A stretch of DNA of 64,000 nucleotides from NCBI GenBank assembly GCA_040285855.1, contig JAUFOQ010000002.1:2976001-3040000 (forward strand), in the 5' to 3' direction. The DNA comes from Eukaryota sp. GEM-RC1. Its lineage: Eukaryota. Under the pieces are notes generated by a model, which made no database searches, was not told where the DNA came from, and was given only the letters and a program-made list of their open reading frames with translations. The translations under genes and the position numbers were made by a program. How positions within the stretch are numbered: position 1 is the first letter of the stretch; each line of letters starts with the position of its first letter. Below, one piece after another: positions 1-60,466 of this stretch.

Positions 1-46
1 TTTTATTTATTAGTATATCTATTAAGACCAGTATTAAAGAATGAGC

Positions 47-2042
47 TTACATATTATGATCATGGTAATAAGCAGCACTAATGTAGGTACCATTAATACG
101 TAATCCTCGTTCATTAATCCTTTCATAAGCATCTTTGAGCTTTCTGTCATTATTAGAAAACCAAACGGATGCACTTTTAAAGAAATTGACATCCCGCTCA
201 AATAATCTTGTTCGCCGTCCTTTATCGAGTGTGCCTTTAATTAGCTTCACAAACTGAGGAAACTCAGATAGAGACAATGATTGTGGTAAAAACCTGATAT
301 AAAGACAGTTGCAGTTACTTCGGGTAGGTAGAGAATCATCTGAAGGTCCATCCGCATCAGCAAAACGACATGAGATTACTTGATGAGAATCCGGCCATGA
401 AATATTGCTTCTATTGATCTCATCAACAGCTTTTCGAGCAAAAGCATTAGTGGAGAACTCGACAAAACCTGTTGAAGAAACATCGTTCTGGAAGACATTA
501 AAAGGCTTTTTTAGAACAATGGGGTTTAATAGGCCCAAATTTAGAGGCAAATAAAGCCAATTGGTGAGGGTCAATACCTGCAGGAATATCAGAAAACATC
601 ACATTTGTTAATGATCGGCGAGCAGCTGGAATTCCAGATGGAACTGTAACAGGGGACTTTATAGGTGGACGAGACGGAGGAAAAGTGGAGGTTGGAGTTG
701 AAATACCAGGGGGAGGTGTGATAGATTCTTGTTCATTGTGTACATTAAAACATGAAGTTGAGTTCACTTGCGAGCCTTTAGGGACGTAACTAGCGTCAGG
801 ATAGATATATAGAGAGGGAATGCTGTGGCTTCCAGTTGTTCCGATATCAAAGCAATCCTTGATGAAGAAAGCCACATTGATTATAAAGTCTGGAACATAT
901 TTGGAGAAGAATTCAAAGGGGGTTTGTCTCTGGAGAAGAGGTGTAAGTTGTGCATGAGAAGAGAAGTTCCTAATAGTGGTGAGCAGGCCGAAAATAGAGG
1001 TGACTGTATCATTATATTGTGTGGAGCCTATAGTTTTTTCAATTTCTGAAGCATATCGTTCAGGAATCTTTTTTAACCAATTGTCAGGAATATTGGTTCT
1101 GTAACAGTTTAACGCAGATATAAGAGGAAATTTGGTCTTAATCAAATCATGCATATGGCGGAGAATATCACCAACATAACAATGGTCAGCGTTTAAAGCA
1201 GTAGATGTTAGTTGGTTGTACTTACAAGCACTTAAGGTAAGAGGATGTCTTTGGAGATCTGATATATAAGGACGGTTGATGACGTGCTTCTGCAAGCATC
1301 CTTTGATAAAATTGGCTTCAACAGGAGTCAACTTGGTTAGATCAAGGGAAGGCTCGCTTGATATATGATAAATAGCTCGTTGTTGCTCCTTAGGGGTGTT
1401 TCCAAAGGGGTGGGTACCGGTAAGAATTTGATGAACGATGATTCCCAAAGAGAAAACGTCTGCCCGTTTACAGAGTCTGGATCCAGATTCAAAAACAGAC
1501 ACATCGGATTCGGGAACTTGATAGCCCAGAGTTCCAGCAGCATTATCAGTTTGAATGTGGGTCCGATCTGCGGGGATATAGTGACTAACTCCAAAGTCAG
1601 CAATTTTAATGGTAACAGATTGGTCCGCAGCAACATTTACCATGATATTAGCGGGTTTCAAATCAGCATGAATGACGTCTTTTGAATGGATATGAGCAAG
1701 GCCATCAATAAGTTGATGAATAACGGAGAGCTTAACACCACGATCAAATGTATATGTTCCTTTTGATACCGCTTCAAAGTACTGTGAAAGGTTCATATCA
1801 CACTTTTCTAGAACTAGGTACACAAAATTGAGATCAGATTCGTCGATATCCAGCATTTTGATGATATTGGGATGAGAATTATCCCCATAAGAACATCGGT
1901 GAAGAGAGGCGAACTCAGGAGACTCTAATTTGGCGTACTCTTTGAGAATGACATCGGTGAAGACTCCAGCTTGCTTGAACTTGCCTTCATACACATTGTT
2001 TTGTGAGCGTGAGATTAGTAGTCCTCTTTCGATCTTAGTCAT
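47..2042 (-). CDS. IRE1/RNase L-like kinase + KEN ribonuclease + RRM-like domains, paralog 1 (ORFs 498..2042 and 47..574 joined by a frameshift)
   Basis: Kinase motifs HPNII, LVLEKC, HADLKPANI, DFG, GTLGYQVPE, DVFSLG..GTHPFG. KEN-like WLKKI...SIFGLLTTIRNFSSH...FFSKYVP. RNP-like VMFSDIP, TGFVEF, LYIRFLP. Removing one G from the run near 522-525 gives PIKPIVLKKPF, matching paralog 2. Confidence 0.8.
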
Positions 2043-2890
2043 GGGAGAAGAATTATTTCAAATTTAAAATCCCCAACAACTCTTCACACAACTTGTATTA
2101 GACTTTCACCCCCAACCAGACCCTCTGATTAATTCTCAGACCGATCAACTCTTCTGATGTTTGTTTCTGTCTTTCTCTACATATAATCCTTTTCTCTATC
2201 ATTTAGGTAATCTCCCTTTCGAACAATATCATCTATTTCTCCGTAATTCTGTTTTGGAGACCTCGCTGTACTTCGATGTTCGTCTATCAGTTGTTCTCTC
2301 TATTCTCTCCACGTAACAGTTCATTTCCGTCCCTTCAGAAGTACTGCTTTGAATCATTCTCTGAGTCTCTGGACAGTTGCTGTCAGTCAATCTTGAATGG
2401 TTTTGATTGACATTTATCTATAGATGTGGTATCTCACTTCTAGAACTTTGGGATCCCGTTGCAGAAACAATGATCTTGTGCTTCCACTGCTTGCTATAGG
2501 ACCATAGTATGTCGTAATGATTAACAAATCTTGTTACCAACCGAAATGCAGGTCAACTACTGGTAATTACTCTGGATGTTTTGAAGATATTTATTGAAAG
2601 TCTATTTTCTGACCTTTTTTCATAAAAAATGTTCCTTTGACAGTTTCAATTTTTAATCCAACAATGTTTATATTGGTTCTTTATGGATTATTCGTTATGT
2701 TTGCCTTTAAGAAGCATTCCTAAGTATATGTACCTGTGTGGGGTTTTTTTTGTTATAAATCCTAATATATTATCTTTAAAGGCTGTGCTAGTGGCAGTCC
2801 TATTTTAGCGTTTAACGATGAGCAAGAAAATTTCAAATAATTACGAAGTAATGCAGTAATTGACGAAAGAAATTGGAACTGGATGTGATA

Positions 2891-3007
2891 CATATATTCT
2901 ACAACATGAAATACAATGCCACCCCAAAAACTACATCTGATACAGCGCCACCCCCCTAATTCTTGGGTTTTTTGGGCGGCGGTGTATTAGATGTTCTAGA
3001 GTACATG
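2891..3007. mobile_element. Small TA-flanked MITE
   Basis: Imperfect TIRs catatattctacaacat / atgttctagagtacatg with TA on both sides. The paralogous site near 43045-43055 is empty. Confidence 0.65.
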
Positions 3008-3565
3008 TACATGTCAAATTTAGTTGTTGTACTTAACTACCAATTTGATTTGACGAATTTGACCCTTCATTTTTTCTGAATTAGTAATTAATTGTTCATC
3101 AAATGTTACAAATAATCCTTTTATGTATATCAAAAATCTTGAGATACATGCAGGTATAATTGACCTCCATTTTTCAGGCAAAACGGCTGGTATGTATGTG
3201 ATGAAAAAACCCAATCGTGAGCACTTGATACGATCATGAGAGTATACTTCAATCAGTTTTCTGATGTACGACAATCCAAATTGGCCTAATTCCAGATACT
3301 CAGTCTAATAATCAACAAATTCATCATTAAAATACACAGCTGATAATGTTCTGGTAACACACAGTTATGTAACTGAACCACGATTGATTGAGAATCAAGA
3401 ATGATTTACCGATTGGCCACAGTGAGAAGACTTCAAAGTTGCTCGAAAGTTACTTCCCCCGTCGAAGTTACTATATTTAATTCTTAGTGTTCATTGAATT
3501 AGTTACAAAATTTGAAGAGTCGACTGGTTTGTTTAAATGACATCAATCAAAACGTCATCAAACCT

Positions 3566-4166
3566 CAGGCCATCTCATGATATAATTGAAAATAAATTGT
3601 ACCTCAAAAAGCGCCAAATAAAAATGTGAAATTAATTTGGGGGTATAGTACTGTATACGAGTCCTTGGCCCTAAATGTAATTAAATCAAAATAACACACA
3701 AATAAAATCAAAATATTTTTATAAATATCATACTAGTAGTGCAATTCATTGGACAGTGGCTGGTCTAAAAGTATCTGACCTTTTTCTTCATATGTTCGAT
3801 CCAATATTGTCATTTTATCGAGAGCCATGAAAATTTATCAGCGTTTTAATTGCTAAGAGTATATTTCCTGTACTCCTAAAGAATAGGTGGATTGGATGAG
3901 AAAGCGGCTTTTCGTTTCATAAATTTTTGGCAGTTTCATTGAAATGAGCACAGTGTACGGTTATGGTGACAGGACCTTACGAGATGCGTTCATTCGACAT
4001 AGATCTGAAAGAGAGTTTTGCACTTAGTATGAGTATACCGGACCGCAAGTGTATGAAAGAGATTATATATGTATTGATTTACATTTTGTCATATTTGCAT
4101 GATCGTAAAAAAGTGTCTAATTATATATAGATAAATAGAATTGATATCTATTTAGGAGGAGCCCTG
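3566..4166 (-). mobile_element. hAT-type MITE, family A
   Basis: Ends caggccatctcat / aggaggagccctg. Flanks tcaaacct / tcagacct (7 of 8 match). Termini are shared with 35108-35753 and 43597-44253. Confidence 0.75.
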
Positions 4167-4275
4167 TCAGACCTATCAGTAACCATCTATTATTACATCA
4201 CAAAACAAAGAAATCGCTCAATGAAATTAAATAAACATTATATTACAGAAAAATGAACATACCAATACATTATAC

Positions 4276-6348
4276 TTATAACTGGGAGTCATAAAAATAT
4301 GAAGCACTTACATAGGTCCCTTTGTAAGTTAAACCATCAACATTAATTCTCTCGTAAGCTTCGCGGAGCTTTCTTTCATTACCACCAAACCATACACTAC
4401 CAGTCTTATAAAAACTATTTACTGCAGTACCTCTGTCAAATAATCTTGTTGGTTGTCCCCTCTCAAAAGTCCCTTTAATCCGTTTAACAAAGTCACGGAA
4501 ATCAGATAATGAGATTGAATAAGGCAAAAACTTGATGTACAGAGAATTGCAGTTACTTTTACAAGGCAAAGAATCATAAAAATTATCATCGGAATCAGCA
4601 ATGCGACATGATATTACTTGATTGGATTCTGGCCAGGAAATATTGTTTTGATTGACCTGATCAACCGCTTTTCGAGCAAAAGCATGAGAAGCATATTGGA
4701 CAAAACCAGTTGACGAGCCATCAGTCTCCGGACGTACACTAAAGGGCTTTTTAACACGAAACGGTTTGATAGGACCAAATTTAGATGCAAATAAGGCAAA
4801 TTCATGACAGTCAATTCCATTAGGAAGATTGGAGAACTCAACCTTAGTTTTTGAGGGTTTTCCTAGTCTCTGTTTTGCAACAACACTAATGAAGGGCTGT
4901 ACTGGTGGTCTTCGGATGGTAGGGGTAGGTGTAGTAATACGAGGAGGAGGCGTGGTAGTGGGAGGTGTAGTAATACGAGGAGGAGGCGTGGTAGTGGGAG
5001 GTGTAGTAATACGAGGAGGAGGCGTGGCAGTGGGAGGTTGATGGGTTACACTGGATCTTGGAGTTGAGTTCACTTGCGAGGCTTTAGGGACGTAACTAGC
5101 GTCAGGATAGATATATAGAGAGGGAATGCCATGGCTTCCGGTTGTTCCGATATCAAAGCAATCCTTGATGAAGAAAGCCACATTGATTATAAAGTCTGGA
5201 ACATATTTGGAGAAGAATTCAAAGGGGGTTTGTCTCTGGAGAAGAGGTGTAAGTTGTGCATGGGAAGAGAAGTTCCTGATAGTGGTTAGCAGGCCAAATA
5301 TAGAGGTGACTGTGTAATTATAGTTTCGAGGGCTTATGGTTCTTTCAATTTCTAAAGCGTATCGTTCAGGAATCTTTTTTAACCAATTGTCAGGAATATT
5401 GGTTTTGTAACAGTTTAACGCAGATATGAGAGGAATTTTGGTCTTGATCAGATCATGCATATGCCGGAGAATGTCGCCAATGGAGCAATGGTCAGCGTTT
5501 AAAGCAGTAGATGTTAGTTGGTTGTACTTACAAGCACTTAAGGTAAGAGGATGTCTTTGGAGATCTGATATAAAAGGACGGTTGATGACGTGCTTCTGCA
5601 GACATCCTTTGATAAAATTGGCTTCAACAGGAGTCAACTTGGTTAGATCAAGGGAAGGCTCGCTTGATATATGATAAATAGCTCGTTGTTGCTCCTTAGG
5701 GGTGTTTCCAAAGGGATGGGTACCGGTAAGAATTTGATGAACGAGGATTCCCAAAGAGAAAACGTCTGCCCGTTTGCAGAGTCTGGATCCAGATTCAAAA
5801 ACAGACACATTGGATTCGGGAACTTGATAGCCCCAAGTTCCAGCAGCATTATCTGTTTTAATGTGAGTCCGATCAGCGGGGATATAGTGACTAACTCCAA
5901 AGTCAGCAATTTTAATGGTAACTGATTGGTCCGCAGCAACATTTACCATGATATTAGTGGGTTTCAAATCAGCATGAATGACGTCTTTGGAATGGATATG
6001 AGCAAGGCCATCAATAAGTTGATGAATAAGGGAGAGCTTAACAGCACGATCAAATGTATATGTTCCATTTGATACTGCTTCAAAGTACTGTGACAGGTTC
6101 ATGTCACACTTTTCTAGAACTAGGTACACAAAATTGACATCAGATTCGTCGATATCCAGCATTTTGATGATGTTGGGATGAGAATTATCCCCATAGGAAC
6201 ATCGGTGAAGAGAGGCGAACTCAGGAGACTCTAATTTGGCGTACTCTTTGAGAATGACATCGGTGAAGACTCCAGCTTGCTTGAACTTGCCTTCGTAGAC
6301 GTTGTTTTGTGATCGAGCAAGAAGCAATCCCCTTTCAATCTTTGACAT
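4276..6348 (-). CDS. IRE1/RNase L-like kinase + KEN ribonuclease + Pro/Thr linker + two RRM-like domains, paralog 2 (intact, 690 aa)
   Basis: Same kinase and KEN motifs (IRNFSSH). RNP-like VEFSNLP, TGFVQY, LYIKFLP. No signal peptide, TM helix or ankyrin repeats before the kinase. Confidence 0.85.
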   Translation of the reverse strand: MSKIERGLLLARSQNNVYEGKFKQAGVFTDVILKEYAKLESPEFASLHRCSYGDNSHPNIIKMLDIDESDVNFVYLVLEKCDMNLSQYFEAVSNGTYTFDRAVKLSLIHQLIDGLAHIHSKDVIHADLKPTNIMVNVAADQSVTIKIADFGVSHYIPADRTHIKTDNAAGTWGYQVPESNVSVFESGSRLCKRADVFSLGILVHQILTGTHPFGNTPKEQQRAIYHISSEPSLDLTKLTPVEANFIKGCLQKHVINRPFISDLQRHPLTLSACKYNQLTSTALNADHCSIGDILRHMHDLIKTKIPLISALNCYKTNIPDNWLKKIPERYALEIERTISPRNYNYTVTSIFGLLTTIRNFSSHAQLTPLLQRQTPFEFFSKYVPDFIINVAFFIKDCFDIGTTGSHGIPSLYIYPDASYVPKASQVNSTPRSSVTHQPPTATPPPRITTPPTTTPPPRITTPPTTTPPPRITTPTPTIRRPPVQPFISVVAKQRLGKPSKTKVEFSNLPNGIDCHEFALFASKFGPIKPFRVKKPFSVRPETDGSSTGFVQYASHAFARKAVDQVNQNNISWPESNQVISCRIADSDDNFYDSLPCKSNCNSLYIKFLPYSISLSDFRDFVKRIKGTFERGQPTRLFDRGTAVNSFYKTGSVWFGGNERKLREAYERINVDGLTYKGTYVSASYFYDSQL
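4928..5035 (-). repeat. 36-bp coding tandem repeat (ITTPPTTTPPPR), about 3 copies
   Basis: ggtgtagtaatacgaggaggaggcgtgg.agtggga is repeated. Paralog 1 has only one related unit. Confidence 0.9.
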
Positions 6349-7160
6349 TGGAGAAGAACTATTTCAAAATTAGATCTTCAGTTGATCAATTGTTATTAGT
6401 GTTATTATGTATATGTGCAAGTCTCAGAATAAGAGATTTAACTTATCAATTTGGCATAACCGTTTGATTTTTTCTTTGTTCCGTTCGGTGCCTAAGTTTT
6501 TAAATCAAATAAAAACTGTGGTACTGTTGACCAGGAATTTTCGGTGTCTAGTGTTTCATAGCTTTTACAATGATATGTATTTTTGTACCCTCCATCAATA
6601 AACTGTTTTTTTTATGTTTGTTTTTGCAATTTCAATTCATAGATGTACTAGTACCTTATTAAGTACCGAATTAAGTCTGATTGTTTGCAAATCGCAATTT
6701 ATGAATGATTATCTTCTTAAGAACTGTTGTCGTAATGTCAGTACCAATTTTGATATTCTACAAGAGAAGTTTTGTAAGCATAACTATGAAAGAGACACAA
6801 CCGCTGGCATTGCAACGCACAAGACTACAAAATTGAGGAATATCATCATTTAAAATCATGTTCCGCTGGAGAAGTTTCAGGTTCACAGTTAAGAACTACC
6901 AAACACATTCAGCGAAGACCAGTTAATTGTGCTGTAAAACAGTATCACTTTCAGTAATAGATTCAAGGACAACAAATGTGTTCTTGATTCTACTACTGAA
7001 AGTGTATTGAAAAATCCAAGTAAAGGACTGCACTATAAGTATCACACGGTTTGCATTGGTTTATTGTCTTGTTTGACAACTGAGAAAATGTCAGTGTCAT
7101 TCAAATATATTATTTATCGATTATCTGAACTACTTGAAGTATTCCCGAAGCAGTTCAAAC

Positions 7161-8118
7161 CATACCTAGGCAATACAGATACACTGTATCCTGTATTTGT
7201 ATCTGTATTCTGTATTTGTATCTGTATACTAACATTGATTTGTATCGTGTATTCTGTATTTTGTGTATTTTGTGTATTTTCTTCAAACCCTTCAATTGAA
7301 ACTGACAAAGAAGCTCCCACCAGTCTACTGCAATAATAAACAGCGTCTACAAATTTGCTTCAAGGTTGAAAAGAGATCAGATGTGTATTGAACTCAAAAC
7401 TGTTAGATGAGCACACACAATAGCATTTGTTTTTTTCCTTATTCCTCAATGTATGTTTGTTCTTTCCAATCATCTCTCTGATGTTAAAGCAACATCTCCT
7501 TTCAGTGTACTGAAGAATATCTTAAAGAAGGAGGGAAACCCTATTATAAAGGGAAAAGAAGTTTTTCGAATAACAGTCACACTGATGATTACTGAGTTTT
7601 GAAGTAATTTACATCCTTAGACTGGAACTGACGTAAAAATAGTTATTTATGTGATACCTTAGAGTAGAACGGGAACAAAATGATTTTTATATAAATACAA
7701 TATATGGACTTCATGGTTGTACCAACATACTAGTATGTTCAACTTATCGAGAGAAATAGAAATGCATTCTCATAATAATGGAAAGCACAATCCGCTTTTT
7801 CCAATCAGACTTTCGAAACTTAGACTTCTTTTCTTTACAAAGTTCTTCAAAATCCTTGTAAATTTGTTCACCAGCAAAACTAATCGATCAGGTTGGAAAA
7901 AGCGAAAGGTTGGAACAGAAATTTGGAATACATGTGATCCAATATATGTTGAACTGTGTTAAATACAAACATGTCTAACAACAATGAGCAGTACAATGCC
8001 ACGTCAACAGAAGAATCTTATGACCAAGGATGTCCTTGTATCTGTATCTGTACTTTTGTATCTGTATTCTGTATTTGTATCTGTACTTTGAAATGTTTTC
8101 GTGTATTTCCTAGGTATG
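7161..8118. mobile_element. Non-autonomous hAT element, family B
   Basis: TIRs catacctaggcaatac / gtatttcctaggtatg. Perfect 8-bp TSD gttcaaac (7153-7160, 8119-8126). tgtat subterminal repeats. Confidence 0.9.
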
Positions 8119-8485
8119 GTTCAAACAGTATATCAGTCTGTTTTTTCACATACTTTGAGTGTTTATCATCTCCTCAGTACCATCTTCAGCTGAGATTGCC
8201 AGGAACATCTATCTTATTTGATTGATCATTGTGACCTCAATTCTGATCACGGTCGAACAATTCTTTGACATAATAATCATGTTATTCAAGGTGTCTGGAC
8301 ATTATGTGTTCGATACATGTAACAGCTGTATTTGGTTAAAGAACAATCGATAAATTCTGTTTCTTGGACTTTACACCCTTTTGCAGAAAAAAGACATTCA
8401 AACCAAAATACAAAAATTTCAATCAATTTTGAATCAAAATGGTATATATATCAAACTTTTGATAAAGATGCCAGTCCCCTCGTTC

Positions 8486-8996
8486 TAGGATTGTAATTTT
8501 GAGTCAAGCTGACTCACTGAGCTTTGAGTCAGTCAGCTGGAGTCAGGCTCATTTGACTCATGAGTCGTGTCAAGCCTATGTTTTTGTCTGTGAGACTCAC
8601 AGTGAGAGTCAGCTCTACTCAAGTTTACACTAATAAATATAATTTAATACAATTTAAACGTATTCTATTACAATCACGTGGACATGGAATTAGTAGCTGT
8701 TCTCTGTACAAATTCATTTGCATGGTAATGTGCGGGATGAGCTGATAGCTTACTTATCAACAGGCATAGTTGATGCTGTGATGGATCCCCTAGATTGGTG
8801 GAAACGCTGCCAGTCAGATTATCCTAGCTTAGCTTGCTTAGCTCGCGAATACTTAAGCATTCAGCCAAGTTCAGCAACAATTGAACGTTTGTTCTCTGCT
8901 GCAAACCAAATTGTAACAAAGAAAAGGGCTAGGCTATCTGCAATACTGCAAGGTGTTTATTGTGTTTACGCTCGTGGTACGGAACAATATGTATGA
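8486..8996 (+). mobile_element. hAT transposon remnant with C-terminal dimerisation domain
   Basis: DPLDWWK...YPSLACLAREYLSIQPSSATIERLFS...KKRARLS at 8718-8996. Upstream gagtca/tgactc subterminal repeats. Confidence 0.85.
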
Positions 8997-9210
8997 AAAG
9001 ATGATATGAGAATTCTGACAATAACACAAAAAAGTTGTGTATACAAAATATACAAATTTTTTCGTAGAGAAATGGACTTTTCTTGACTTTTCTTGCCAGA
9101 CGACTCCTCGATTACGTTGACAGAAACACTAGCGATGTAGCTTCATCCTCTTGAAATATGGAGACAACACAATTAAGGAAAAGAAGTGAATTCCCCCTTC
9201 AAAATTCAAA

Positions 9211-11536
9211 ATGAGGGATGCCCTCTCCATCATCAACAGAATCCAACATGACCCTTCTTTCAATCCTGACGAGTTCCTTATAGGCTTTGAAGACAGATTT
9301 ACTGGCACTCAGTTCGTCAACTTTACTTCTTTCATCAAACTCAACATGCCTTCCCACAGAGTACGCTATATCATGCAAAACAACGTTGTATTATGGTCTC
9401 GACTTAAGAAAATAGACATCCTGGGCCAACAACCCTCTTCTCTCAACCAGTTCTCTGCCATTAACTCCTTTACTGCTGGCTCTTTGACTAGGATCTTCAA
9501 ACCAACTAGCCATTCCCGTCAAAACTTCTCTGTCGTCCTTCCTAATTTTGACACCACATCTTCCTCCATCACTATTATTCGTGCTTCCGTCGGACTCTCG
9601 CACACCCTCGTGTTGACGAAGCAATCTGACTGCTATTCATTCGGTCTCAATCAGTTCCATCAAGTTTCTCCTTCCTCTTTCCAATCACACTCTTTTAAAC
9701 AACAACCTGTACATTTCATCTCTTCCAAAGTTCTCTCTGTTTCAGCAGGATCTCACTACTCAATGCTAGTTACAAGTGATCATAATGTTTATGGATTTGG
9801 TCGTAATGATTATGGGCAAATAGGCATTCTTGAAAAGTCAATGCTGACGTCAGTTGATGAGCTCTTGTTTGAATCAGTTGGTCCTCTGGGTCCAGTAGTC
9901 GTCAGAAATTTAACAATCGTTGAATATTTCAATTCTAAGAATATTTTAAAAATTGCTTGTGGTGAGACTCATTCCCTTGCCCTTTCTATATTTGGTTCCG
10001 TATACACATTTGGAAACAATTACCACCACGCATGTGGCCATCATGATCCCAATTCAATCACGCCACGTGAACTTTCCCTTCCTGAACCAGCAATCGACAT
10101 TTCAGTTGGCCGATATCATTCACTAATTCTTCTGTCTTCGGGTTCTGTTCTTTCTTTTGGTTCTAATGCTAGTAATCAACTAGGTAGAAGTCATCTATTA
10201 AATGATTATCGACCTTTACCAATCGACGGTTTGATTGACCCCTTCAAGATAGCACACGTGATGCTCGAGTTGCAGTACAAATTGCTGCTGGTAGTGAGCA
10301 TTCGGTTGTGCTATTGCAAGGTAACGATGTGTTAGTGTTTGGGAAAAGTAGCAGTGGTGGGTGTGGTGTGGTGGCAAAACGAGTGGCACCAGTTATTCTA
10401 TCTTGTTTGTCAAATTTAAATATTTGTAAAATATTTGCGGGAATCGGAGGTGCCACTGCGGCTGTTGATACAAATGGTTTGGCCTATGTAATTGGTGGAG
10501 AGTTTGGACCTAAATTACGTAGTTATAATGACGATTTTTATGTTTCAGTGGCACTTTCCCTTTCTGTGTCATACTTGATCTCTTCTTCTTTTGTTGACCT
10601 TACTGATTGCAATCTAGGGTTGTCAATGATTGAAGATGATCGAAAGACGCTGATCAAAGATTTGAGTGACACTGACATGACCTGCAGAGGCAAAATTTTA
10701 AATTTTTATTGTGCATGTGATAATCAGTTTGTTGACCGTGTTGATTTTGTGTTGTTTTTAAATTGCTTTCCCGATTTGGTTACAGAAATCAAATTAATGA
10801 TTAAAGGAAAACGGTCTGAAAACAATCATATTTCAAAAATTGAAAAAAAGTCGAGTGAAATCGATATTTACTGGAATTTTAAATCTTGTCAAATATTTGA
10901 TTTAATTCAGTTCTTATATGGTCATGAAGTTCAACCACCGTTGCCTTCTCTCAATTCTCCACTACTTTTCACAGCAATCTCTCCTAGTTTTGATGGCTCT
11001 CAATTTTCTACTCCAGATGCATGGGATATCAACATGCTGATTCATCGTGACGTCAGCATTAGAGCTCATCGTGTGATTTTGTCTATTTTTTCATCATTTT
11101 TTCGAGCCATGTTCACGTCATCAATGGCTGATTCAAAAGAAAGTCAATCAAATTAGAGTTTTGTGATGCTGTATCGATGTCGTTGATTTTGGATATTGTC
11201 TATAACAACTCAATCACTCCTACGTGTGAGCTGAATTGTGATGATGTTCAATCAGCAATCATTTTGGCTGATCATTTGGGATTCACTTCAATTCTACCAA
11301 TATTATATAAATATTTGATGAATTTTGTCGATGTTTCTGGGTTGGTGTCGTCAATTATTTTGGCGGAAAAGCTAGGACTTTCAGAATTGATTGATCATTG
11401 TCTTTGTGGACTGATGACGTGTTGGTCTTTGATTGACAAGAAGTCGTTATTGAGTTTACCTTCTAAAACATGGAGTCGAATTCAATGTCGATTAATCCAA
11501 GAAGGATTTCCAATCACTTTGATTGATTTTGATTGA
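9211..11536 (+). CDS. MJ1316-like domain + RCC1 repeats + BTB domain protein (three ORFs joined by frameshifts)
   Basis: N-terminal IINRIQHDP..IGFEDRFTG..PSHRVRYI..VLWSR..KID. RCC1 repeats SAGSHYS, GRNDYGQIG, IACGETHSLAL, GSNASNQLG. BTB IRAHRVILSIFSSFFRAMF. Confidence 0.75.
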
Positions 11537-12011
11537 TGAACTCCATTCCATTCTTCATAACATCTCGTGATTCTGTGGATTATTTTGTGAGTTTCTCAAT
11601 GCCCATGTTGAATCTTTGAAGCCGCATAGAATTATGAACATTTCATTAATCAGTTGATTTGATCACCAGTGTTATCAACGTGTGATTTTGTAGTCAATCA
11701 ACATCCTTTCTATTTTTTTTTGATGACGTGATAGAGTGAGAGGTTTATATCGGAATCACAACTCTTGATAGTCGAACTCTTCTCAAATACAATATGTTCT
11801 TCAAATGTTCTGTTCTTACTAATAACTTTGTTTTAAAAGAAAGAAGATGCTGAAATACATTGTCAAATCATTGATAGTCCAAGATTAAGGGTGTTCCTCG
11901 TTACTTAAAGAGGAAGAAAGAAGAAATTGAATAGTAAATAAGCAGGCTAAACAACTAATTTGATTGCAACTTAATTTTGATTGCAATACAATAGTATATA
12001 CATTTATAACA

Positions 12012-14134
12012 CTATTTGACAAAAAACCATTCAGTTTCCGATCTTTTCTTAACCCAAGCTTGAAAAATGAAATTGACTTCACCAGAAATACATTGTGAAA
12101 ACACCTCACATAATTGAGAATGAAATCCAAACCTCACCTTAATTTCACTAACAACAGAATCTAATTCATCTGGTAAAACAAATGATAAATAAAAGACCAT
12201 CTGCCTAAAAGCATAAGCTGCGTTTTTGTAATTAGATCCATTGGGGTTACTCTTGGACAATCTGGCAATGAAATCAGCACATTGTTTAGCCAATTGACCA
12301 AACAATAAGCAATTTTTAAGGCCAAGTTCAGAGATAACCTCATATAGATTCATTGTTGTTAAGATATACATTTGTTCAATAATTCTGGCATTTTGAGTTA
12401 TTTGATAGCCAACAGGTCGTCCTGCTCTCTTAACACAATAATGATAAAACTCTTTCCCACTGTTCAACTCATCTATTTCAGCACAATCAAGGTTGTAGTA
12501 ATTGGCATATAGAGTGTCCTTCATTCAAACTTTCTTGGCCAAAGTAAGGAAATATTCACAAAAGTTATGTTCAAAAATATCAATGGCCAGTTCTGGTACT
12601 AGTGTCAATTTAGTAGAGTTAAATTCATATTCTTTCATTGCAGATATAAGCTTATTAGGCATTTGAACATGACAAAAAGGTTAAAATACACTTCAAAGAG
12701 GGTTTTGCCAATCTTCTCCATAACTTTCTTTCGTTCATCCATAACTTCTTTTGTTAGAAGCTGTTTAAGCAAACTATCGACCCATGGAACTTCCTTGTAG
12801 TGAACTTGTGATTGTAGATCAAGTAAAAGAAGAGATCGACGTCGGAAGAAAGCTAGAAGGAGTTGAAAAGCCACATATCTGACTCTTTCATCTGGAATTG
12901 AAGAAACTAGCCCAAATACAGTGAATTTTCTACTCATCTCTGCAAGAATCTCAGCTGAGCGAATTTGACACTTTCCTTCAGCAACTTCAGTTAAAGTGAA
13001 TAATCGAGCACGCTGAATTACACGAGAATATTTAGGGCACGTGATCCTACCAAGAAACACGTCAACATCTTCTGCATTGATTCCTAGTGAGCAGTTATAA
13101 CTCTTTAAAAGATCCAAAACGACAACTCTTTCATCCTCAAATCTCTGTACCATATCAACTATATACTGTTGCTTCGCCCTCAATGTTAAAGTCTGTTCTG
13201 ATCCCGGTAGTCCTCTTTTTTTCTTAATTCCATTCAATTGTGACAATATAACACGACTATCTCTAGCATTAGGATTCTTTCCCTTAGTAAAGAAGTTTAT
13301 GGCAGCATTCATGATGATGTGATAGCCTTTGCTTAAACGTTTACACTGTTTTTGTTCATTTGATAACTGGTGATATTGAGATTGAAATAATTCAAACCGT
13401 TCTCGGGAGATATCGTCTAAATTGGTAAAGGGTTTGTTGTTGTCCATTGTAAGGATGGTTAGTTCTACAAGGAGATCGATGACAGGAAGAACGTCAGAGA
13501 CAGCTGCTGCATGTTTCTTTACAGATCTACGGAGCCGGAGCCGATTGACTTCAGAAATAGCTCCAGCGATGTCGATTACAGCAGTTTGAGGTACAGAAGT
13601 ATCAATAGAAGAAGCACCAGTTGGTTGAGGAAAGAAACGGAGGAGAGAGAAGAAAGGCGAAATGTCTTTGAGGATTGAATTAGCTTGTGACGTTAGCTTC
13701 TGATCCTTGAAGTAAGAATACACCAATAAGGCCCCTTCTTCAGTGGTTGGACACTGGAAAGATGACTGGGAAATTAACGATTGCAGCTCCAAATGGCCCT
13801 GATCTGTCAAAAAATATGAGTTAGCCAAGTGACGAACAGCAGCAGCATCTAGAGAGTCAAAGGGTTGGCTGTTTTCTAGCAAGGTATGAAGTTTCATTGC
13901 ATAGAGGCGTTCGTGGTTCATTATCGGACCTCCTGCAGCCAGAGAGCCAGAGACAAATCCTCCGTATATCACCTGAGGTGTTATCCAGGTCCTCAAAGAT
14001 AAGGGATTACGAGATCCAACTGTGATGTTACCTCTAAGAACTCCTTTTATAGCTGATGCAAACTCTTCCGCTTTCATAGAAGCACCTGATTTCTGACTCC
14101 TTAGATAATTGGAGTACAAAAACAGAACAGACAT
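12012..14134 (-). CDS. Uncharacterised protein resembling a bacterial conserved-hypothetical family (ORFs 12635..14134 and 12012..12524; start uncertain)
   Basis: Blocks VGSRNP..WIT..GGFVSG..AAGGP, RRRSLLLLDLQSQV..EVPWV, bridging frame MPNKL..VPELAIDIF, then LYANYY, IEQMYILTT, KNAAYAFRQMVFYLS. Confidence 0.6.
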
Positions 14135-14754
14135 CTCTGGTTATCGAGTGATTGAAAAGATTGAAAATCCCTTCCGAGTCTGTTCCAATTGAAATCGTTC
14201 ATCTATGGTCAACACTTTGCAACGTAGATGGATGGAGCTTTGTCTAATACAAGGTCTAAAATATATATACGTAAAAAACTGAGAACATGTGTGTAGGAGA
14301 AAGTAATTGAGTTCTGTTGGAGTAACCATACTGTAGTTTAGTTTCTTGGTTGATTGCTACATATGAGTTGATAAAGTGATGATGAAAGTGTGTGCAAAAC
14401 CCAGAATTCTGTCCTAGATAGTTCACATTGTCCGGTTTCAACAATCCATGATATACATAACAGCAATCTAGATGGAAGCATGAGTACTGAATCAACAATT
14501 GAATCCTATAGAAATTCCTTGATTTTTGGCTCTGCAAGACGTCAAGGTGCCGGTAACTCAAGTGTCCAAATCACTTTGCAGGAAGAAGGAGTTAACTTTG
14601 TTAGACAAAACAACTTGTCATTGTTTGTTAGCGATGACATGTGATTATCTCTTTCCGATTCTTGAGAAATCTGTTGACTTTTGTTACAGTACAAAACTTT
14701 CCTAAAAGAAATTTTCAGTTCTACATTTTTTGTTCTTCCTTCCAGATTTGTCTA

Positions 14755-38698: not shown

Positions 38699-39139
38699 AT
38701 GTTTTCTAATTTAGTCCCTTTTGTTTTGTTTATTAAAAAATTATTATTTGAATAAGTCTCAATACAACTTGTAGTCTATTGCTTGTTTGAAACATGAATC
38801 AAAAAAGGCTTTATTTAATACTGAAAAAAGCCACAAGTGTAACATGTCTGCAAAAATATGCACTTGTAAAAAAATACATAATTCAAATTTAAACGACTTC
38901 ATCCAGGGCTCCTCATAAATAAATATTAATTCTATTTATTTCTATTTCTATTTATTTTTGATCCTTTTTGGCGATCATGCAAATACAGTCTACCCTCCCA
39001 ATATGACCAGGTGTCGGACCAGACTTATTGGGAGGGTGGACTTATTCGGAGGGTTTGGTTTTTATAGAATGAACAGCGATCGTCGATCGTTTATAACAAA
39101 TAAAACAACAAGCTAAGACAACCGTGCGTCAATCAATCA

Positions 39140-39590
39140 GGAGACCGATGGCTCGTCAACTGGTTTTGTCCAATATGTTTCTCATGCTTTTGCTCGAAAA
39201 GCGGTTGATCAGGTCCATCAAAACAATATTTCCTGGCCAGAATCCAATCAAGTAATATCATGTCGCATTGCTGATTCCGATGATAATTTTTATGATTATT
39301 TGCCTTGTAAAAGTAACTGCAATTCTCTGTACATCAAGTTTTTGCCTTATTCAATCTCATTATCTGATTTCCGTGACTTTGTTAAACGGATTAAAGGGAC
39401 TTTTGAACGAGGTCAACCAAGATTATTTGACAGAGGTACTGCAGTAAATAGTTTTTATAAGACTGGTAGTGTATGGTTTGGTGGTAATGAAAGAAAGCTC
39501 CGCGAAGCTTACGAGAGAATTAATGTTGATGGTTTAACTTACAAAGGGACCTATGTAAGTGCTTCATATTTTTATGACTCCCAGTTATAA
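39140..39590 (+). pseudogene. 5'-truncated copy of the RRM-coding end of the kinase-KEN-RRM gene
   Basis: Near-identical reverse complement of 4276-4730, with one codon deleted (QPTR to QPR). The 3' flank is also copied. Confidence 0.92.
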
Positions 39591-41901: not shown

Positions 41902-43340
41902 TGATATCTATTTATCTATATATATTTAGACACTTTTTTACGATCATGCAAATTAAACAAAATGTAAATCAATGCACATATAATCCCTTTCATACACTTG
42001 AGGTCCGGTGTACTCACACTAAGTGCAAAACTCTCTTTCAGATCATTGTCGAATGAACGCATCTCGTAAGGTCCTGTCACCATAACCGAACACTGTGTTC
42101 ATTTCAATGAAACTGTCAAAAGTTTATGAAACGAAATAGTGGATGTTGATAAAGCTGTTTTCTCATCCAATCCACATATTCCTTAGGAGTGAACGAAAGA
42201 TACTCTTAGCAATTACAACGCTCATTAATCGTCATGGGTCTCGATAAAACGACAATATTGGATCAAACAGAAGAAGAAAAAGGTTTAGACGAGCCAAAAA
42301 CATGTCCAATGAATTTGGTTGTTTCTTACTGTGACTTGCACTATGGCATTTATAAAAATATTTTGTTTTAATTTGTGTGCTATTTTGATTTAATTATATT
42401 CAGGGCCAAGGACTCATACTAGTATACTCCCAAATTTATATCACATATATTTTTGGCACTTTTTTATGTTCAATTTATTTTCAATTATCTTATGAGATGG
42501 CATGAGGTTTGATGACGTTTTGATTGATGTCATTTAAACAAACCAGTCGACACTTTAATTATTGTAACTAATTCAATGAATACTGAAAATTATATATGGT
42601 AACTTCGACGGGGGAAGTAACTTTCGAGCAACTTTGAAGTCTTCTTACTGTGGGCAATCGGTAAATCATTCTTGATTCTCAATCAATCGTGATTCAGTTA
42701 CATAAATGTGTGTTACCAGAACATTTTCAGCTGTGTAATTAAACGATGAATTTGTTGATTATTAGTCTGAGTATCTGCACATTTGGAATTAGGCCAATTT
42801 GGATTGTTTTACATCAGAAAACTGATTGACGTACAATCTCATGATCCTATCAAGTGCTCAGGATTGGGTTTTTTCATCATGCCTGAAAAATGGAGGTCAA
42901 TTGTACCTGCATGTATCTCAAGATTTTTGATATCAATAAAAGGATTACTTGTAACATTTGATGAACAATTAATTACTAATTCAGAAAATGTGAAGGGTCA
43001 AATTCGTCAAATCAAATTGGTGGTTGAGTACAACAACTAAATTTGACATATCACATTCAATTACAAATTCTTTCGTCGCGTACTGCATTACTTCGTAAAT
43101 ATTTGAAATTTTCTTGCTCATCGTTATACGCTAAAATAGGACTGTCACAGCCTTTAAAGATAATATATTAGGAGTTATAACAAATAAACCACACAGGTAC
43201 TTATACTTAGAAATGTCTTTAAAAGGCAAACATAACGTGAATGACCCACAAACATTTTGGATCAAAAAATGAAATTGTAAAAGGAACATTTTTTATGAAA
43301 TAGACTTTCAATAAGTGTCTTCAAAACATCCAGAGTAATT
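41902..43340 (+). repeat. Inverted, diverged copy of about 2565-4140
   Basis: Colinear reverse complement, e.g. gtaaggtcctgtcaccataaccg and aacttcgacggggga. ORFs 3020..3274 and 42783..43040 are counterparts. Confidence 0.92.
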
Positions 43341-45350: not shown

Positions 45351-48300
45351 ATGGAGACCCCGAAGAGCGAGGCTGCCTCGCATTCGACTGCTCATCACTA
45401 CAGATCTACATCCGTTGTGACCAAAATTGAGTATAAGGTATTCAACATACTACGTCGGATTTCCTTTGACTCAACCCGTTTCAACTTTCTTGCCTTATTA
45501 GTTGTTGTTCTAGAAGTCCTACAAATTGCGGGTGTTGTTCTGAACTCCATTTCTATTCCCCACTGGGATTCCTTCTTTGACTTTCGAGCCATTCATCATC
45601 TCACCCTACAACTCTCTTCTAATGTATATGGATTCGATCCCTGGACCGTTTATTATGCCGTTGTTGCTTTTCTCATAGCTTGCTGTCTGGTACTCCTTCT
45701 GACAGTGTTTTTTATGAGTGAAACCTTGTTGTCCTCTCTAGGAGTTGTTGTCAGTAAAGGATGCTTTGCATTCATGTGTTCCTTCCTTTATCTTCCTTTA
45801 CTATCTGTACTAACCACCTCTTTAACATGCTTCTCCCCTAACGATCCTGTTATCTTCGTATCCTTGTTTCCCCCAGAGACTTGTTGGAGCCTCCCAGGTG
45901 TACTAGTGAAACTACTATCATCGGTCCTTATCATTGGATTGTTCATTGTTTCTTTGATTCATTGTACGTGTGCTGCTGACGTGTCGCCTTCTTCAAAACG
46001 TGTCTGGGCCAGGGCAACTTCCTTCTCTCATTTGGCTTTTTTTCCTTTCCAAGAATTTTTTAATTGGAATACTTTTTTCTTCTTCCTTTTAGAACCTGGC
46101 TATTCCGTTTCTCTTATGTTGCGTTGTCTCTCTTCGTTCCACTTCTCTTCATTCGAAGCTTACCCTTCTACAAACTGCAATCAAATCAGAAGTTCATTTT
46201 GATCATATCACAATGGCCAGCAGCAGCATTTACGTTTCTTTCAAATTTAGCCATTTCTTCATTTGCTTCATTTTCAGGTTCCCAATCTGGACTGATAATA
46301 TTAATACTTTGGTTCGTTTTCTCTGTATTGTTTTCGTCCTTATTTTATTTTTTGGTCACTACTCATTTCAATCAAAAATCCTCTCCCCCTAAAGAGGTTC
46401 CTGCTGAGATTCCTTCTTCTGCTCCTCCGATTAGAAGTGTATCAATCGGAATTGATCTCGACATTGATTCCAGTCAATCATCGACTTCTGAGACCGATCA
46501 CCAATCGGACCATCATAAACAATCCAATACCCAAAATTATTTAAAATTTAAGTATTGGTTCGACGTTGAACTCTATGTTCGTTTCCTACAACCTAAACCC
46601 CTAAAGTCTATTTCTTCCCTTGTCGACTCTGCCGCCAACATTATTGACCAGGGAAATGCAAAGTTCAATGAAATGGTCGACGTTCATCTCTTTAAATGCA
46701 ATTTTGAAATTTTCGTTAAACAGAATCATTTATCCTTTATTGCTCTAAATTCTATAATTCACAATTTAGATGTAGATCTTTCCTTCCGCCATCGGTTTCT
46801 CTTGTATTTCTATCAAAAAACTACCGAGAATCTTCGAAGAATGACAAATACTGGGGAGGATTATTTCGATACCAAATCTTCCATCATATTTCAAAAGAAT
46901 CTTCGTGAAGTCAAGGAGCTGTATCAAGATTGTTTAGACGCCCTTGCTCAGTTCTGGAATCAAATGACTGTTGATAATCCTGACCTCTCGAAACTTCCAG
47001 TGATTACTGATAGATTGAGATTGACAAAGTTAAAAGCTGAGAATCTTTTCAATGTCTTATTAGCTTCTTTTCCTGATAATAAGGAGTTGTTGACTGTTTA
47101 TGCAGCCTATTGTAAGGATGTAAAAATGGATGACGAGCTGTCCCAATCAATTGTGGACTCTATTGAGCTCCAATCATCAATCGGTTCAGAAAAGAGCTCG
47201 TCGTTAAGAAGTTCTGCTCCATCAAGATCCAGTTTTGGAAGGAAGAAAAAGAGGAAACGTGGCCGTCGAGGGTTCATTCTTTCAGTTGCCAGTCAATCAG
47301 ATCACCATGATTTAGTTCAAACTCTATCACGTATGATTTTCTTTTCCTTTGGACTACTCCTTGTCGTTTCAGTATTGTCTTTTGTTTTCTTTTCCAGTAC
47401 TCTTGATGACGTGACGAATAGAGCTCTGCGATTGGTTGAAAGTTCTCATGTTTTGACCATTGCAAACAAACTTGCTCTTGAATCTAGATTATACTCACTG
47501 TATTTGAATTCTACACTGGAAAATTCTTTTAAAAATCAAATATTGGAGGATGCTGAACACGTCATGTACCATGGTAATAGAGTTTTCATTTCCTCCGATG
47601 CTTTTACTACACCTCGATCATATGTATGTCCCCGAGTAAATGATGCTGAGCTCTCCTCTGTCAATGATGACGTGATTAATTCATTTATTAAGGATCCTTC
47701 AATATTGGTGTTTTATTATAGAAATACAAATCCTCCGGTGAGTGAACCCAAAATTTTAAATTATTGGGAATTGGTCTCTTCGTTTACAGCTGCTGCTGTA
47801 GATTATTTGAACTCCCTCGAAGTCGGAGGTGTTGTTGACGTCAACAGATTCTTTAGATTTCTCTCAGACAATCGTCGATCTCTAAATATTGCTGGTAATA
47901 TACTATTTACTACAATTTTAGAAGCAGCGGAATCATTTTTCAATACCACAAGATTTGTTATTCTGTTTTCGTCAGCTTCCTCGTTGATTTGCTTGGTTTT
48001 TGTTGGAATATTTGGATTCTACCGAATTATTTCAAAAATTTCATGGCAACGACAAGCTGTATTAAATCTTTTCCTATGGGTTCCAAGTTCCACGTGTCAA
48101 TCAATCGTGGATGATCTAAAGTCAAAAAAGGCTTCTGGAGCAGTGGTGGATGAAGATTTTTCTGATCGCGAAGACCAGTCTCAAAATTCGGAAAAATCAG
48201 AAAATCAATCAAATCTAATTGATGAAGTGACCACCAAAGTAAAAACACACCTTGATGAATCGGTCAATCTGTATGTTGATTCTGAAGATGAAGAAGAAGA

Positions 48301-50688
48301 GCCGTTATCCCCCAAAAAAGTTTTTATTGGTTTTAGTTTCGTTTTCCATTTTTGTTCTGTTGTTGGTGCTCATTCTTCTTTTCTCCACAGTCTCAAAGAA
48401 TCAACAGGACTTGGTCTCTACTATTTCTGAAGGATTACGCTTGGAAGATACTGTTGTTGAGTTGTTGGCTTTGGATTTCATTCTTTGTTCAAGAACTTTT
48501 GCTCTAGTGAACTCGGGAGATTTGTTCTTTTATCAAAGTTATTGGCAATTTTTAAATTCTGGAACCCGAGAAGGATTGATTGAATCATTGTCTTATGATT
48601 TTGATGTTTCTACTGAAATTCAATTGCTTATCGGCGAAACTTCTGTTTACAGAGATCATATTCTTCATTATGACAAAGTCGCTCAAGTGCTGAATTCGCA
48701 AATTTTTAATTTCTCATCTGATCTTATTACGGAAATTTCAAATTTCGACTACGATTTAGATTCTGAAACCCGAATTCAACATGACCGAATTACTTTCCGA
48801 AATATCATCAATTGGTATTCTAATCTAGATCATGACTCTCAAATATCAGTTCAAGAAAAATTTAAAATTGTAAGAGAAACCATTAGTTCCGATCGATATC
48901 TAGAATACATTTCTAAGTCGATGTCTAATTTAGACAAAGTTCTTTTACTAGTCAGTGAAGATTCTGATCACAATATGGACATCATGTTTTCTAGAATTAG
49001 AGGATCTCAACTTTTAATCGTTGCGACTGTATTTGTTGTCTTCATTTTACTTCTTTTGTTCACCCGTATGGTTGGCTGTTTTACTTCCAAAATTCTTCGA
49101 ATGATCACGTATTCTGGTGTTGCTTTGGTGGCTGTTGCTTTATTGGTTTGTTTATTTGGCCTTTACCACCACTTTGATGACGTCAGCACGATCAGAACAA
49201 ACACGTCATTCGTTCAGAATCTCGTTGACCACTTTTCGAGAGCACGTTACATGATTACTAATTATAGATTCCATGGGGATCGGTTTTTAACTGGTGGTAA
49301 TCTTAACTCGTATAATGAATATTGGAACTATAGAAGAAATCTCGAGCAAGAACTTGAGGCTATACAACAACTAACGTTGACACGTGGCACTGTGATTGAT
49401 GACGTCATGTCACGAATTGAGTCAATATATGGCCAAATGAAGGTGGAGTATGGTGCTGTTTTCAAAGTTCAAGAGATTGCGTTCACTATCGCGTCTTCTG
49501 CCTACGACATTCCAATCAATATCACGTCAGAACTGATTGGAGTCGACTGGGATGTTCAGCAGGAACACAATTTTGAACGTATCGCTGTCAATCAAAGAAA
49601 TGTTGATATCACTAATCGATATACTAACAAAACATTTGATTTAAATAGGACAACCGATGAAAAATTAAATTTATCTAGATATTTGGTAATGTCACGTAGT
49701 TTCTTCAGTATTCTTGGTCGATCGTTTCATGTTTACCTAGCTCAGCCCAATGAGCTCCTTTTATCACGTTTCATTGAAGAATTGACAAAACTTTCAATCC
49801 CATCATATTTTAATATTGTTTTAGCAATTCTTATTGGTGGAGGTTTCATTTCTTTAGTTCTTTTAATCGTCACTGTAATTGTTTGTTTACCCCAAAAGGA
49901 GAAGGTCTCTCACGTCAAGCAATCAATCAATCTAGTGCTGATTCAAAAATTCAACACCCAAAGTATTATTTCTTTAATTCTTCTTGGCATTTCCCTTTCA
50001 GCCTTTTTTTGCCATTTGTTATTTGAACACTGTTTCTCTCTCCTATTTTCCCTCTGACCTACATCAAAGCGGTGTGCGAGGATCGTTGGTATTTAGAATT
50101 GTTGGGCTGGTTCTGGACACAGTTTATATTCCAAACACCCGACAATCGAGTTTGCGATTAATGTCTGAAAATTTAAAGAATTTGGAAAATGTTCATTCTG
50201 AGCTGTTATATTCCACTTCTTCACCAACAGCAGGACGGTATTCCCCTCAAAACGAACTACTGTTCAACAGTGGTTTCAATGTCTTAAACAACACTAACAA
50301 TCATGGTTTGAATTATCTTGTCAACAACTTTATTCTTATTTGCACTCAACTAATCAATCAAGAAGTTGATGTTGATTGGGATTTTGATGCACCAATCATT
50401 CAAGAAGCTATTGATACAGGACGGTTGTTGACTACAAGTTCATTAGATTCTCTAGATGTTTATTTTGAAGAGTTATCTGATTTAATTACAACTCAACGAT
50501 GGATTACGACTTCAGTTTTAATGTTGGTTTTTGTTACATCAATTGCAATTTATTTTGTAATTTTTCGAAATATGTTGAACACTTTAAGAGATGAAGAAGA
50601 GATCAGTAGTCAGTTGATTTCAATGATTCCACAGGCTATTATTGACTCGAACAAGTTGATTTCTGATTTTGTAGACTCAAAATTATAA
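45351..50688 (+). CDS. TmcB/TmcC-like multi-pass membrane protein (four ORFs joined by frameshifts)
   Basis: N-terminal TM bundle. Helical block AQFWNQM...AENLFNVLLASFPDNKELLTVYAAYCKDV. Repeated TM hairpins ending LFLWVP and LISMIP. Confidence 0.7.
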
Positions 50689-59870: not shown

Positions 59871-60466
59871 CCAAGACTAAATTAAATCATCAAGAATTAG
59901 TCTTGGTGAGACTAATTAAAATACAGTTCAATTAGTCTCACTCATATATTAGTCTTGGTGAGACTAATTGTTATGTGTGCACGATTGAAAGTGTCTTAAG
60001 AATTAGTCTCACCAAGACTAATTGTCAATGACAGTGTAGAAGAGCAAATAGAACAAACAGTCCTATGCAAAAGGATCACTTCCTATAAAGCCAAAAGGAA
60101 CGATCAAATATTCTCACAATTCTACTTAACATAGGTAGACTAATCGTCAGGAACAGCAAGAACTGTTTTACCTTGTGAATCAGTTAGTAAAAATTGCAAC
60201 AAGACATGAAAAATAGTTACATGTATAACATGTACCACATACACATCATATACCATATACTGTTAGTTACAATTAGTACGACATCAACTGTTATCGTATC
60301 AGTGACATACTCTCAAACTTGTCAAGATGTCAACATGTCAATGTAGACATTAACCACAAATAGTTCAAACAGAAATTTAAGATCATTCGCTTAGTGAGAT
60401 GTCTATCGACTTCGTGTTGGTTAGATATCTCACTGTGCTTCGTCTCCCCACTGTCAGGAGCCTTCC

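Follow-up and report, generated by a model that had tools for sequence, protein, structure and literature searches.

To our knowledge, IRE1 and RNase L represent the two characterised ways of switching on a kinase–KEN nuclease. IRE1 relies on a luminal sensor joined to a transmembrane helix, and RNase L, a pseudokinase that lacks catalytic motifs, relies on ankyrin repeats that bind 2-5A (2',5'-oligoadenylate). Other arrangements have been described. Arabidopsis IRE1C has no luminal domain, retains the membrane helix and is located at the endoplasmic reticulum (ER) beside a full IRE1 (bioRxiv 651182; PMC6883098), and KEN domains are found fused to ankyrin, CCCH, UBI and BRCT modules in proteins that show lineage-specific expansions and have been proposed to act as defensive RNases (PMC3710099). 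Here, we describe a tandem pair of genes (copies A and B) in a 64,000-nt stretch of contig JAUFOQ010000002.1 from Eukaryota sp. GEM-RC1 (the window, in which all coordinates below are given unless stated as amino acids). The genes encode an IRE1-type kinase, a KEN-like domain and two C-terminal RRM-type (RNA recognition motif) domains, and with their homologues they form a real and conserved soluble offshoot of the IRE1/RNase L module that has apparently not been described. We lean slightly towards reading these proteins as cytosolic RNases whose RRMs bind target RNA and gather copies into a predicted cutting dimer.

The window is eukaryotic, with a GC (guanine plus cytosine) content of ~37% and short introns of 30–32 nt bounded by GTTTG...YAG (three, read by eye). 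Copies A and B are related reading frames lying head to tail on the minus strand. Copy A (4276–6348, minus strand, with its ATG at position 6348) is a single intact open reading frame (ORF) of 690 amino acids with the order kinase–KEN–linker–RRM–RRM, and its protein is present among NCBI protein records. The linker (4864–5073, minus strand) is basic and Pro/Thr-rich (30% Pro); at 4917–5038 a 36-nt unit is repeated 3.4 times in tandem. Copy B is read in two minus-strand frames. The first (498–2042) encodes 514 amino acids comprising the kinase (1239–2042), the KEN domain (843–1238, with its motif at 954–971), the linker and the start of RRM1, and the second (47–506), which is free of stops until the stop codon at position 47, encodes the remainder of RRM1 and RRM2. 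The sequence-only reading of this locus, made without database searches, had described tandem copies with an N-terminal kinase, a KEN-like domain, a Pro-rich linker and two RRM-like domains; its coordinates proved exact and every one of these domains was recovered. Two further features have emerged, namely that copy B's frameshift lies inside RRM1 and that the window holds a third, partial copy, an orphan 3' fragment at 39129–39590 (plus strand) that covers most of RRM1, RRM2 and ~100 nt of 3' flank with 95% DNA identity to copy A.

Homologues of these proteins were sought with phmmer among 1.84 billion protein representatives, the best 150 matches being considered. Only two of these matches span the kinase, the KEN domain and beyond: P0239 (651 amino acids, 37% identity over aa 7–686, E 9e-98) and P0240 (700 amino acids, E 2e-57). 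A further protein, P0388, is a near-copy of P0239 with 8 differences. All three are annotated as hypothetical proteins and come from Eukaryota sp. TZLM3-RCL; this organism is Skoliomonas sp. RCL, an anaerobic metamonad from soda lakes (PMC11316075). The three Skoliomonas genes are 29–37% identical to the window family and keep an R-[N/H]-x3-H motif, and in each of their products the kinase comes first and two RRM-like domains come last. Sixteen of the best 150 matches (besides P0002) were scanned with Pfam, and local profiles of KEN and of the family RRMs were run against the whole set of 393 stored proteins; in this architecture search, a kind of check that the sequence-only reading had proposed, the full layout was found in Skoliomonas sp. 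RCL only. The same species also encodes a canonical membrane IRE1, P0374 (KEN E 7e-38). Since the Skoliomonas homologues keep the motif and the species has a normal IRE1 as well, the proteins represent a separate soluble family and not a mis-annotated IRE1. A second canonical-looking IRE1, P0273, is found in a related skoliomonad, so that canonical-looking IRE1s are present in two skoliomonad metamonads, whereas IRE1 is reported to be absent from the three excavates compared in PMC3218828. Judged by these matches, the organism behind the window is probably a relative.

Other searches added no further members. A word-index protein search with the KEN domain returned only the two window proteins (2 of 115 candidates) and missed the Skoliomonas homologues, and equivalent searches with other parts of the protein returned generic or ankyrin kinases only. 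Scans of metagenomes confirmed none of 553 stretches in one round and gave two weak kinase-only matches among 213 in the following one, neither matching the family KEN or RRM profile, and none of 29 viral contigs was positive.

The kinase domain of copy A (aa 1–268; 5545–6348, minus strand) is placed by its sequence in the IRE group. Residues 56–268 match Pfam Pkinase with E 2e-33, and of the 634 PDB entries matched by sequence at E<=1e-10, the three best are yeast Ire1. The catalytic residues K34, E43, D127, K129, N132 and DFG (149–151) are all retained, and a VPE motif is present. The G-loop is without glycine in copies A and B, and the HRD position (125–127) is occupied by HAD in both copies, making them non-RD kinases, by HSD in P0239 and by HRD in P0240 only; the HRD arginine of activation-loop-regulated kinases is therefore absent from A, B and P0239. 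In a tree of 38 kinase domains picked from the stored matches (4 from the family, 18 labelled IRE-like or KEN-bearing and 16 others), the family forms one clade (support 100/99), and a 97/90 split separates the family and the IRE/KEN side from 15 of the 16 other kinases. Two features of the tree tell against this placement: a long branch without relation to IRE1 has landed among the IRE kinases, and the skoliomonad IRE1s do not come out as the sister group of the family.

The segment that follows the kinase in copy A (aa 269–400; 5149–5544, minus strand) is, judged by sequence profiles, probably homologous to the KEN (or KEN/HEPN) domain, represented in Pfam by Ribonuc_2-5A (PF06479). The sequence-only reading stood or fell with a KEN fold at about aa 320–395, and the assignment of the segment to KEN holds by reciprocal profiles. 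Among the 393 stored proteins, a profile of the family KEN segments finds ten non-family matches at E<1, all ten of them KEN-bearing, the best being the two skoliomonad IRE1s (E 0.004). In the other direction, a reference KEN profile ranks A, B, P0239 and P0388 immediately after 26 KEN-bearing proteins, missing P0240, and a profile of 12 non-family KEN domains scores 6.8 bits on the real segment, a value reached by 2 of 2000 shuffles. Alignment of the family and KEN profiles with hhalign gives E 3.7e-4. The segment alone matches the Pfam model with 21.9 bits (E 2e-4) for copy A and 19.2 bits (E 1.4e-3) for copy B, and, as a lead only, comparison of ESM features places two KEN clusters in the top three rows (0.85 and 0.83).

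Both copies carry the sequence IRNFSSH at aa 357–363, the chance expectation of such a motif in the KEN segment being ~0.012. R-N-x3-H is present in A, B and P0239 and takes the form RH..H in P0240, the letters in the Skoliomonas proteins being RNFKSH and RHDRSH. When the domain is aligned with that of yeast Ire1 (residue numbering from PMC8104961), R358, N359 and H363 of copy A (5260–5277, minus strand) fall on R1056, N1057 and H1061 with equal spacing, Y345 falls on Y1043, and R336 (K in copy B) lies 14 residues after a conserved Trp, as does R1039 of Ire1. Site-directed mutagenesis has shown that KEN activity depends on the Arg and the His of the motif (PMC3710099). An AlphaFold2 (AF2) model of aa 1–405, built on a 34-row alignment, has a pLDDT (predicted local distance difference test) of 70 overall. 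Foldseek and VIA rank IRE1 first for this model, aligned end to end, and superposition on human IRE1a 562–955 gives Z 29.2 over 357 residues with a root-mean-square deviation (rmsd) of 7.0. An earlier model built on 11 rows reached a pLDDT of 35, and its fold search was set aside. Prediction of a homodimer of aa 1–405 scored 0.01 and gave no answer, neither for nor against.

Several results weigh against the KEN reading. Scores lie under the Pfam cut-off of 23.3 bits in every family member (21.9, 19.2 and 14.4 bits, with no match at all in P0240), the first profile–profile test was not significant (E 0.18), and the hhalign probability is just 36%. A structure search of the ESM Atlas with the KEN segment returned no KEN row, with template modelling (TM) scores of <=0.37, and a sequence search of the PDB with the segment alone returned nothing relevant. 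The KEN part of the AF2 model is all-helical with a pLDDT of 31–49, and the match to the IRE1 fold is partly circular, since KEN-bearing rows sat in the alignment from which the model was built. The conserved Asp of the 'DLL' element is replaced by Gly or His. The equivalent of Tyr1043, 13 residues before the Arg, is Tyr in copy A only and Asp, Asp and Glu in B, P0239 and P0240, respectively; copy B has a Tyr two residues before this position. Once homologues are aligned, the full set of five Ire1 catalytic residues proves to be conserved in copy A alone.

Such divergence, with the Tyr gone from three of the four aligned members, together with the retention of the kinase's catalytic K34, E43, D127, N132 and DFG, would suit an RNA-binding signalling kinase in which KEN persists as a near-inactive remnant serving dimerisation or RNA binding. 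We regard this as distinctly unlikely. All four aligned members have retained R-[N/H]-x3-H despite KEN identities to copy A of only 41/109 and 32/106 in the two distant ones, and the glycine-free G-loop of A and B argues against a vigorous kinase. The KEN-like domain with R-N-x3-H described in the sequence-only reading has held up, with the Pfam match under the cut-off and the reciprocal profile returning KEN proteins without exception.

Two RRM folds are present at the C-terminus, as had been proposed. RRM1 of copy A (aa 500–590; 4579–4851, minus strand) is recognised by Pfam with E 1.4e-8. RRM2 (aa 598–690; 4279–4557, minus strand) has no Pfam match and is identified by structure and by its similarity to RRM1: all 10 ESM Atlas rows listed have TM scores of 0.63–0.72, nine of the 10 carry the name of an RRM family in the aligned region (each below the tool's family-naming bar), and comparison of RRM2 with RRM1 by profile gives E 1.5e-5. 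What argues against RNA recognition by these domains is that each keeps one only of the three canonical RNP aromatics, the position-5 aromatic of RNP1 in RRM1 and the RNP2 tyrosine in RRM2, and that the RRMs of P0240 are just 14/85 and 14/80 identical to those of copy A. With the aromatics mostly lost from both domains, RNA binding is something that we infer.

The loss of most of the RNP1 and RNP2 aromatics could also be taken to mean that the enzyme is an active RNase whose RRM folds bind proteins or clamp it shut, in the manner of UHM-type (U2AF homology motif) or autoinhibitory domains, with a protein partner or metabolite as the trigger. Kinase–KEN proteins among our matches carry modules of protein-binding types (ankyrin, LRR, TPR, FN3 and MIB-HERC2/vWA). 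However, RRM2 is basic (net charge +5 and +6, pI ~9.5), A, B and P0239 all retain the RNP2 Tyr of this domain, and neither RRM shows the R-x-F motif or the acidic helix of UHM domains (by eye). Protein binding or autoinhibition by the RRM folds is unlikely, and we retain RNA binding as the favoured function.

No signal peptide or membrane helix is found in copy A. Its maximum hydropathy over 19 residues is 1.18, and values for the five family members range from 1.18 to 1.75, compared with 2.74 (the membrane helix of P0374) and 3.13 in two true IRE1s. The family protein has no Pfam ankyrin match and the kinase begins at residue 1–5. That the organism has introns (the three of 30–32 nt read by eye) raises the possibility of an ordinary membrane IRE1 with missed upstream exons, to which the RRMs were added by chance. 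This is barely credible. Both ATGs are preceded five codons upstream by an in-frame stop, with an AG in that region in copy A only, and both have a pyrimidine-rich lead-in of the kind seen at several other starts in the window. The spacer between the copies (2043–4275) consists of 71% dispersed repeats, and its longest stop-free stretch on the minus strand is 94 codons, so that this 2.2-kb interval leaves no room for a copy B sensor exon. Homologues in another species, where a separate full IRE1 exists, also begin at the kinase, which makes an upstream sensor exon very unlikely. Upstream exons encoding a signal peptide, luminal domain or membrane helix, the finding that would have undone the sequence-only reading, thus find no support, and hydropathy, upstream stops and domain matches together bear out its proposal of a soluble, sensor-less, IRE1/RNase L-like protein with a kinase, KEN and two RRMs. 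The spacer also contains one copy of a dispersed non-coding repeat of ~1.5 kb (2565–4139 and 41907–43340, 81–86% identical).

Comparison with the known systems brings out both kinship and novelty. As in IRE1, an IRE-type kinase is followed directly by KEN, with R-N-x3-H in the same register, and the model aligns to the whole cytosolic kinase–RNase unit. In contrast to IRE1, the family lacks a signal peptide, a luminal domain and a membrane helix and carries two C-terminal RRMs; the kinases of A and B are non-RD with a glycine-free G-loop, the substrate loop has ~5 extra residues and the Tyr1043 equivalent is not conserved. The family shares with RNase L a soluble unit of kinase fold and KEN, which would have to dimerise in order to cut (PMC8104961), but lacks the ankyrin 2-5A sensor and keeps the kinase catalytic motifs, the G-loop alone being degenerate. 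Its candidate sensor sits at the C-terminus and would recognise RNA itself, not a second messenger. Arabidopsis IRE1C likewise is an IRE1 paralogue without a luminal sensor that coexists with a full IRE1, but it keeps the membrane helix and has no RRM (bioRxiv 651182; PMC6883098). Sensor loss is therefore already known, and it is the RRM fusion that is new. The kinase–KEN fusions similarly pair a KEN effector with varied accessory domains, the CCCH fusion providing a precedent for an RNA-binding partner (PMC3710099), but none of the 13 non-family KEN-bearing proteins scanned with Pfam has an RRM. The main text of PMC3710099 makes no mention of 'RRM', although its supplementary architectures could bear on the point, and no kinase–KEN–RRM protein was found in the literature searched, in which coverage of subscription papers was small. 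UHMK1/KIS is, like the family, a Ser/Thr kinase with a C-terminal RRM-fold domain, although it lacks KEN, belongs to another kinase group and has a single, protein-binding UHM. Among our matches, P0292, P0278, P0304, P0313, P0325, P0302 and P0003 combine kinase–KEN with LRR, TPR, FN3, MIB-HERC2/vWA or ankyrin modules, or consist of kinase–KEN nearly alone. These proteins suggest that KEN sensors are more varied than has yet been explored.

The two copies have diverged unevenly. DNA identity between A and B is 92.6% in the kinase–KEN part and 71.9% in the RRM part, with dS (synonymous divergence) of 0.15–0.22 and ~1.0, respectively, a mosaic for which the best explanation is an older duplication whose catalytic part has undergone gene conversion or unequal crossing-over. 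The ratio of non-synonymous to synonymous divergence (dN/dS) is 0.14 for the kinase, 0.19 for KEN and 0.25–0.32 for the RRMs, showing that the family proteins are under purifying selection. Seven of the 26 differences between A and B in aa 1–428 fall within aa 332–345 (5314–5355, minus strand, in copy A), the counterpart of the RNA-engaging helix-loop element of Ire1. This clustering has p 0.0006–0.0009 in a plain test; it weakens, to the detriment of any functional interpretation, to 0.045–0.06 when the patchy divergence is allowed for by conditioning on the positions at which codons differ at all. A role in conflict would fit the repeated duplication and the mosaic divergence, which do not prove it.

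Copy B's break is due to one extra A in a run at 507–512, inside RRM1, the coding strand having six A where copy A has five. The frame beyond the break has dN/dS 0.28 relative to copy A over 143 codons. Ten frame switches between long ORFs occur in the window, one of which is explained by an intron. The break is probably an assembly error; a recent truncation is possible but less likely. An intron at the break was considered and rejected: no phase-matched intron of the window type is found there, and the nearest GT-AG pairs (by eye) either retain a stop codon or remove some of RRM1. A programmed +1 frameshift is disfavoured, as A/T runs of 6–7 mark all four +1 switches of the window and at least one of these has its stop far from the run.

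How might such a protein work? From the loss of the sensor and the presence of two C-terminal RRM-type domains, the likely picture is one of candidate RNA cutting at RNAs gripped by the RRMs. Binding of RNA by the RRMs would concentrate protomers via the flexible linker, and, by analogy with IRE1 and RNase L, nucleotide-bound kinase lobes would scaffold a back-to-back dimer in which two R-x4-H motifs form a single metal-free site whose cleavage products end in a 2',3'-cyclic phosphate, in keeping with the catalytic logic described for KEN/HEPN domains (PMC3710099; PMC8104961). By the same analogy, the missing HRD arginine may make activation less reliant on activation-loop phosphorylation. More weakly, RNA-driven clustering may take the place of the luminal or ankyrin sensor, and the targets may be foreign or stress-related transcripts. 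The differences between the paralogues, greatest in the RRMs and the substrate loop, would alter recognition.

RRMs commonly confer sequence specificity, and the same layout could therefore belong to a site-specific processing enzyme whose RRMs direct cleavage and re-ligation (an IRE1-like non-canonical splicing), or maturation, to one or a few of the cell's own RNAs. The specificity of Ire1 can indeed be stringent and tunable by a few residues (PMC8104961). We consider this very unlikely, however, as housekeeping processing enzymes are usually single-copy and conserved, whilst here two copies and a fragment lie within 64 kb, three genes are found in RCL and identities are 29–37%; in addition, no Rfam family was found within 1–12000. 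A putative defence role for the family is plausible. Its strongest form, which is doubtful, is a one-protein innate-immune RNase, in which an IRE1 offshoot senses foreign RNA via its RRMs, oligomerises and destroys the foreign RNA or the cell's own.

Several neighbouring features deserve mention. At 9211–11536 (plus strand), 2.9 kb from copy A and in divergent orientation, lies a gene spread over three frames that combines RCC1 repeats and a BTB domain with an MJ1316 domain (Pfam RNA cyclic group end recognition, E 3.5e-12). Its position beside KEN genes is curious, since KEN nucleases leave cyclic-phosphate ends; gene adjacency carries little meaning in eukaryotes. Two long ORFs at 12012–14140 (minus strand; 501 and 170 amino acids) have no significant Pfam match, a hAT dimerisation-domain fragment lies at 8697–8996, and a large TmcB-like membrane protein (TPR_TmcB E 6e-15) is encoded at 45351–50688 (plus strand) in four frames with breaks at homopolymer runs. 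A 394-amino acid ORF at 61552–62736 (plus strand) has a faint Cas12f1-like TNB match (E 0.093) and adjoins a Ulp1 protease ORF with internal repeats (60425–61630), the two possibly forming a Fanzor/TnpB-like element.

An RRM-wired kinase–KEN nuclease would constitute a third activation route and would show the module's move from ER stress to cytosolic RNA surveillance. If the innate-immune reading were true, the enzyme would do the job of OAS, 2-5A and RNase L without a second messenger, and its paralogues would change targets by exchanging RRM modules and substrate loops around a homogenised catalytic core. As a small, soluble enzyme encoded by a single ORF, it would offer a test case for KEN substrate choice and a possible scaffold for targeted RNA cleavage, and the family would provide a first candidate for an RNA-defence effector among these anaerobic flagellates, a group about which little is known.

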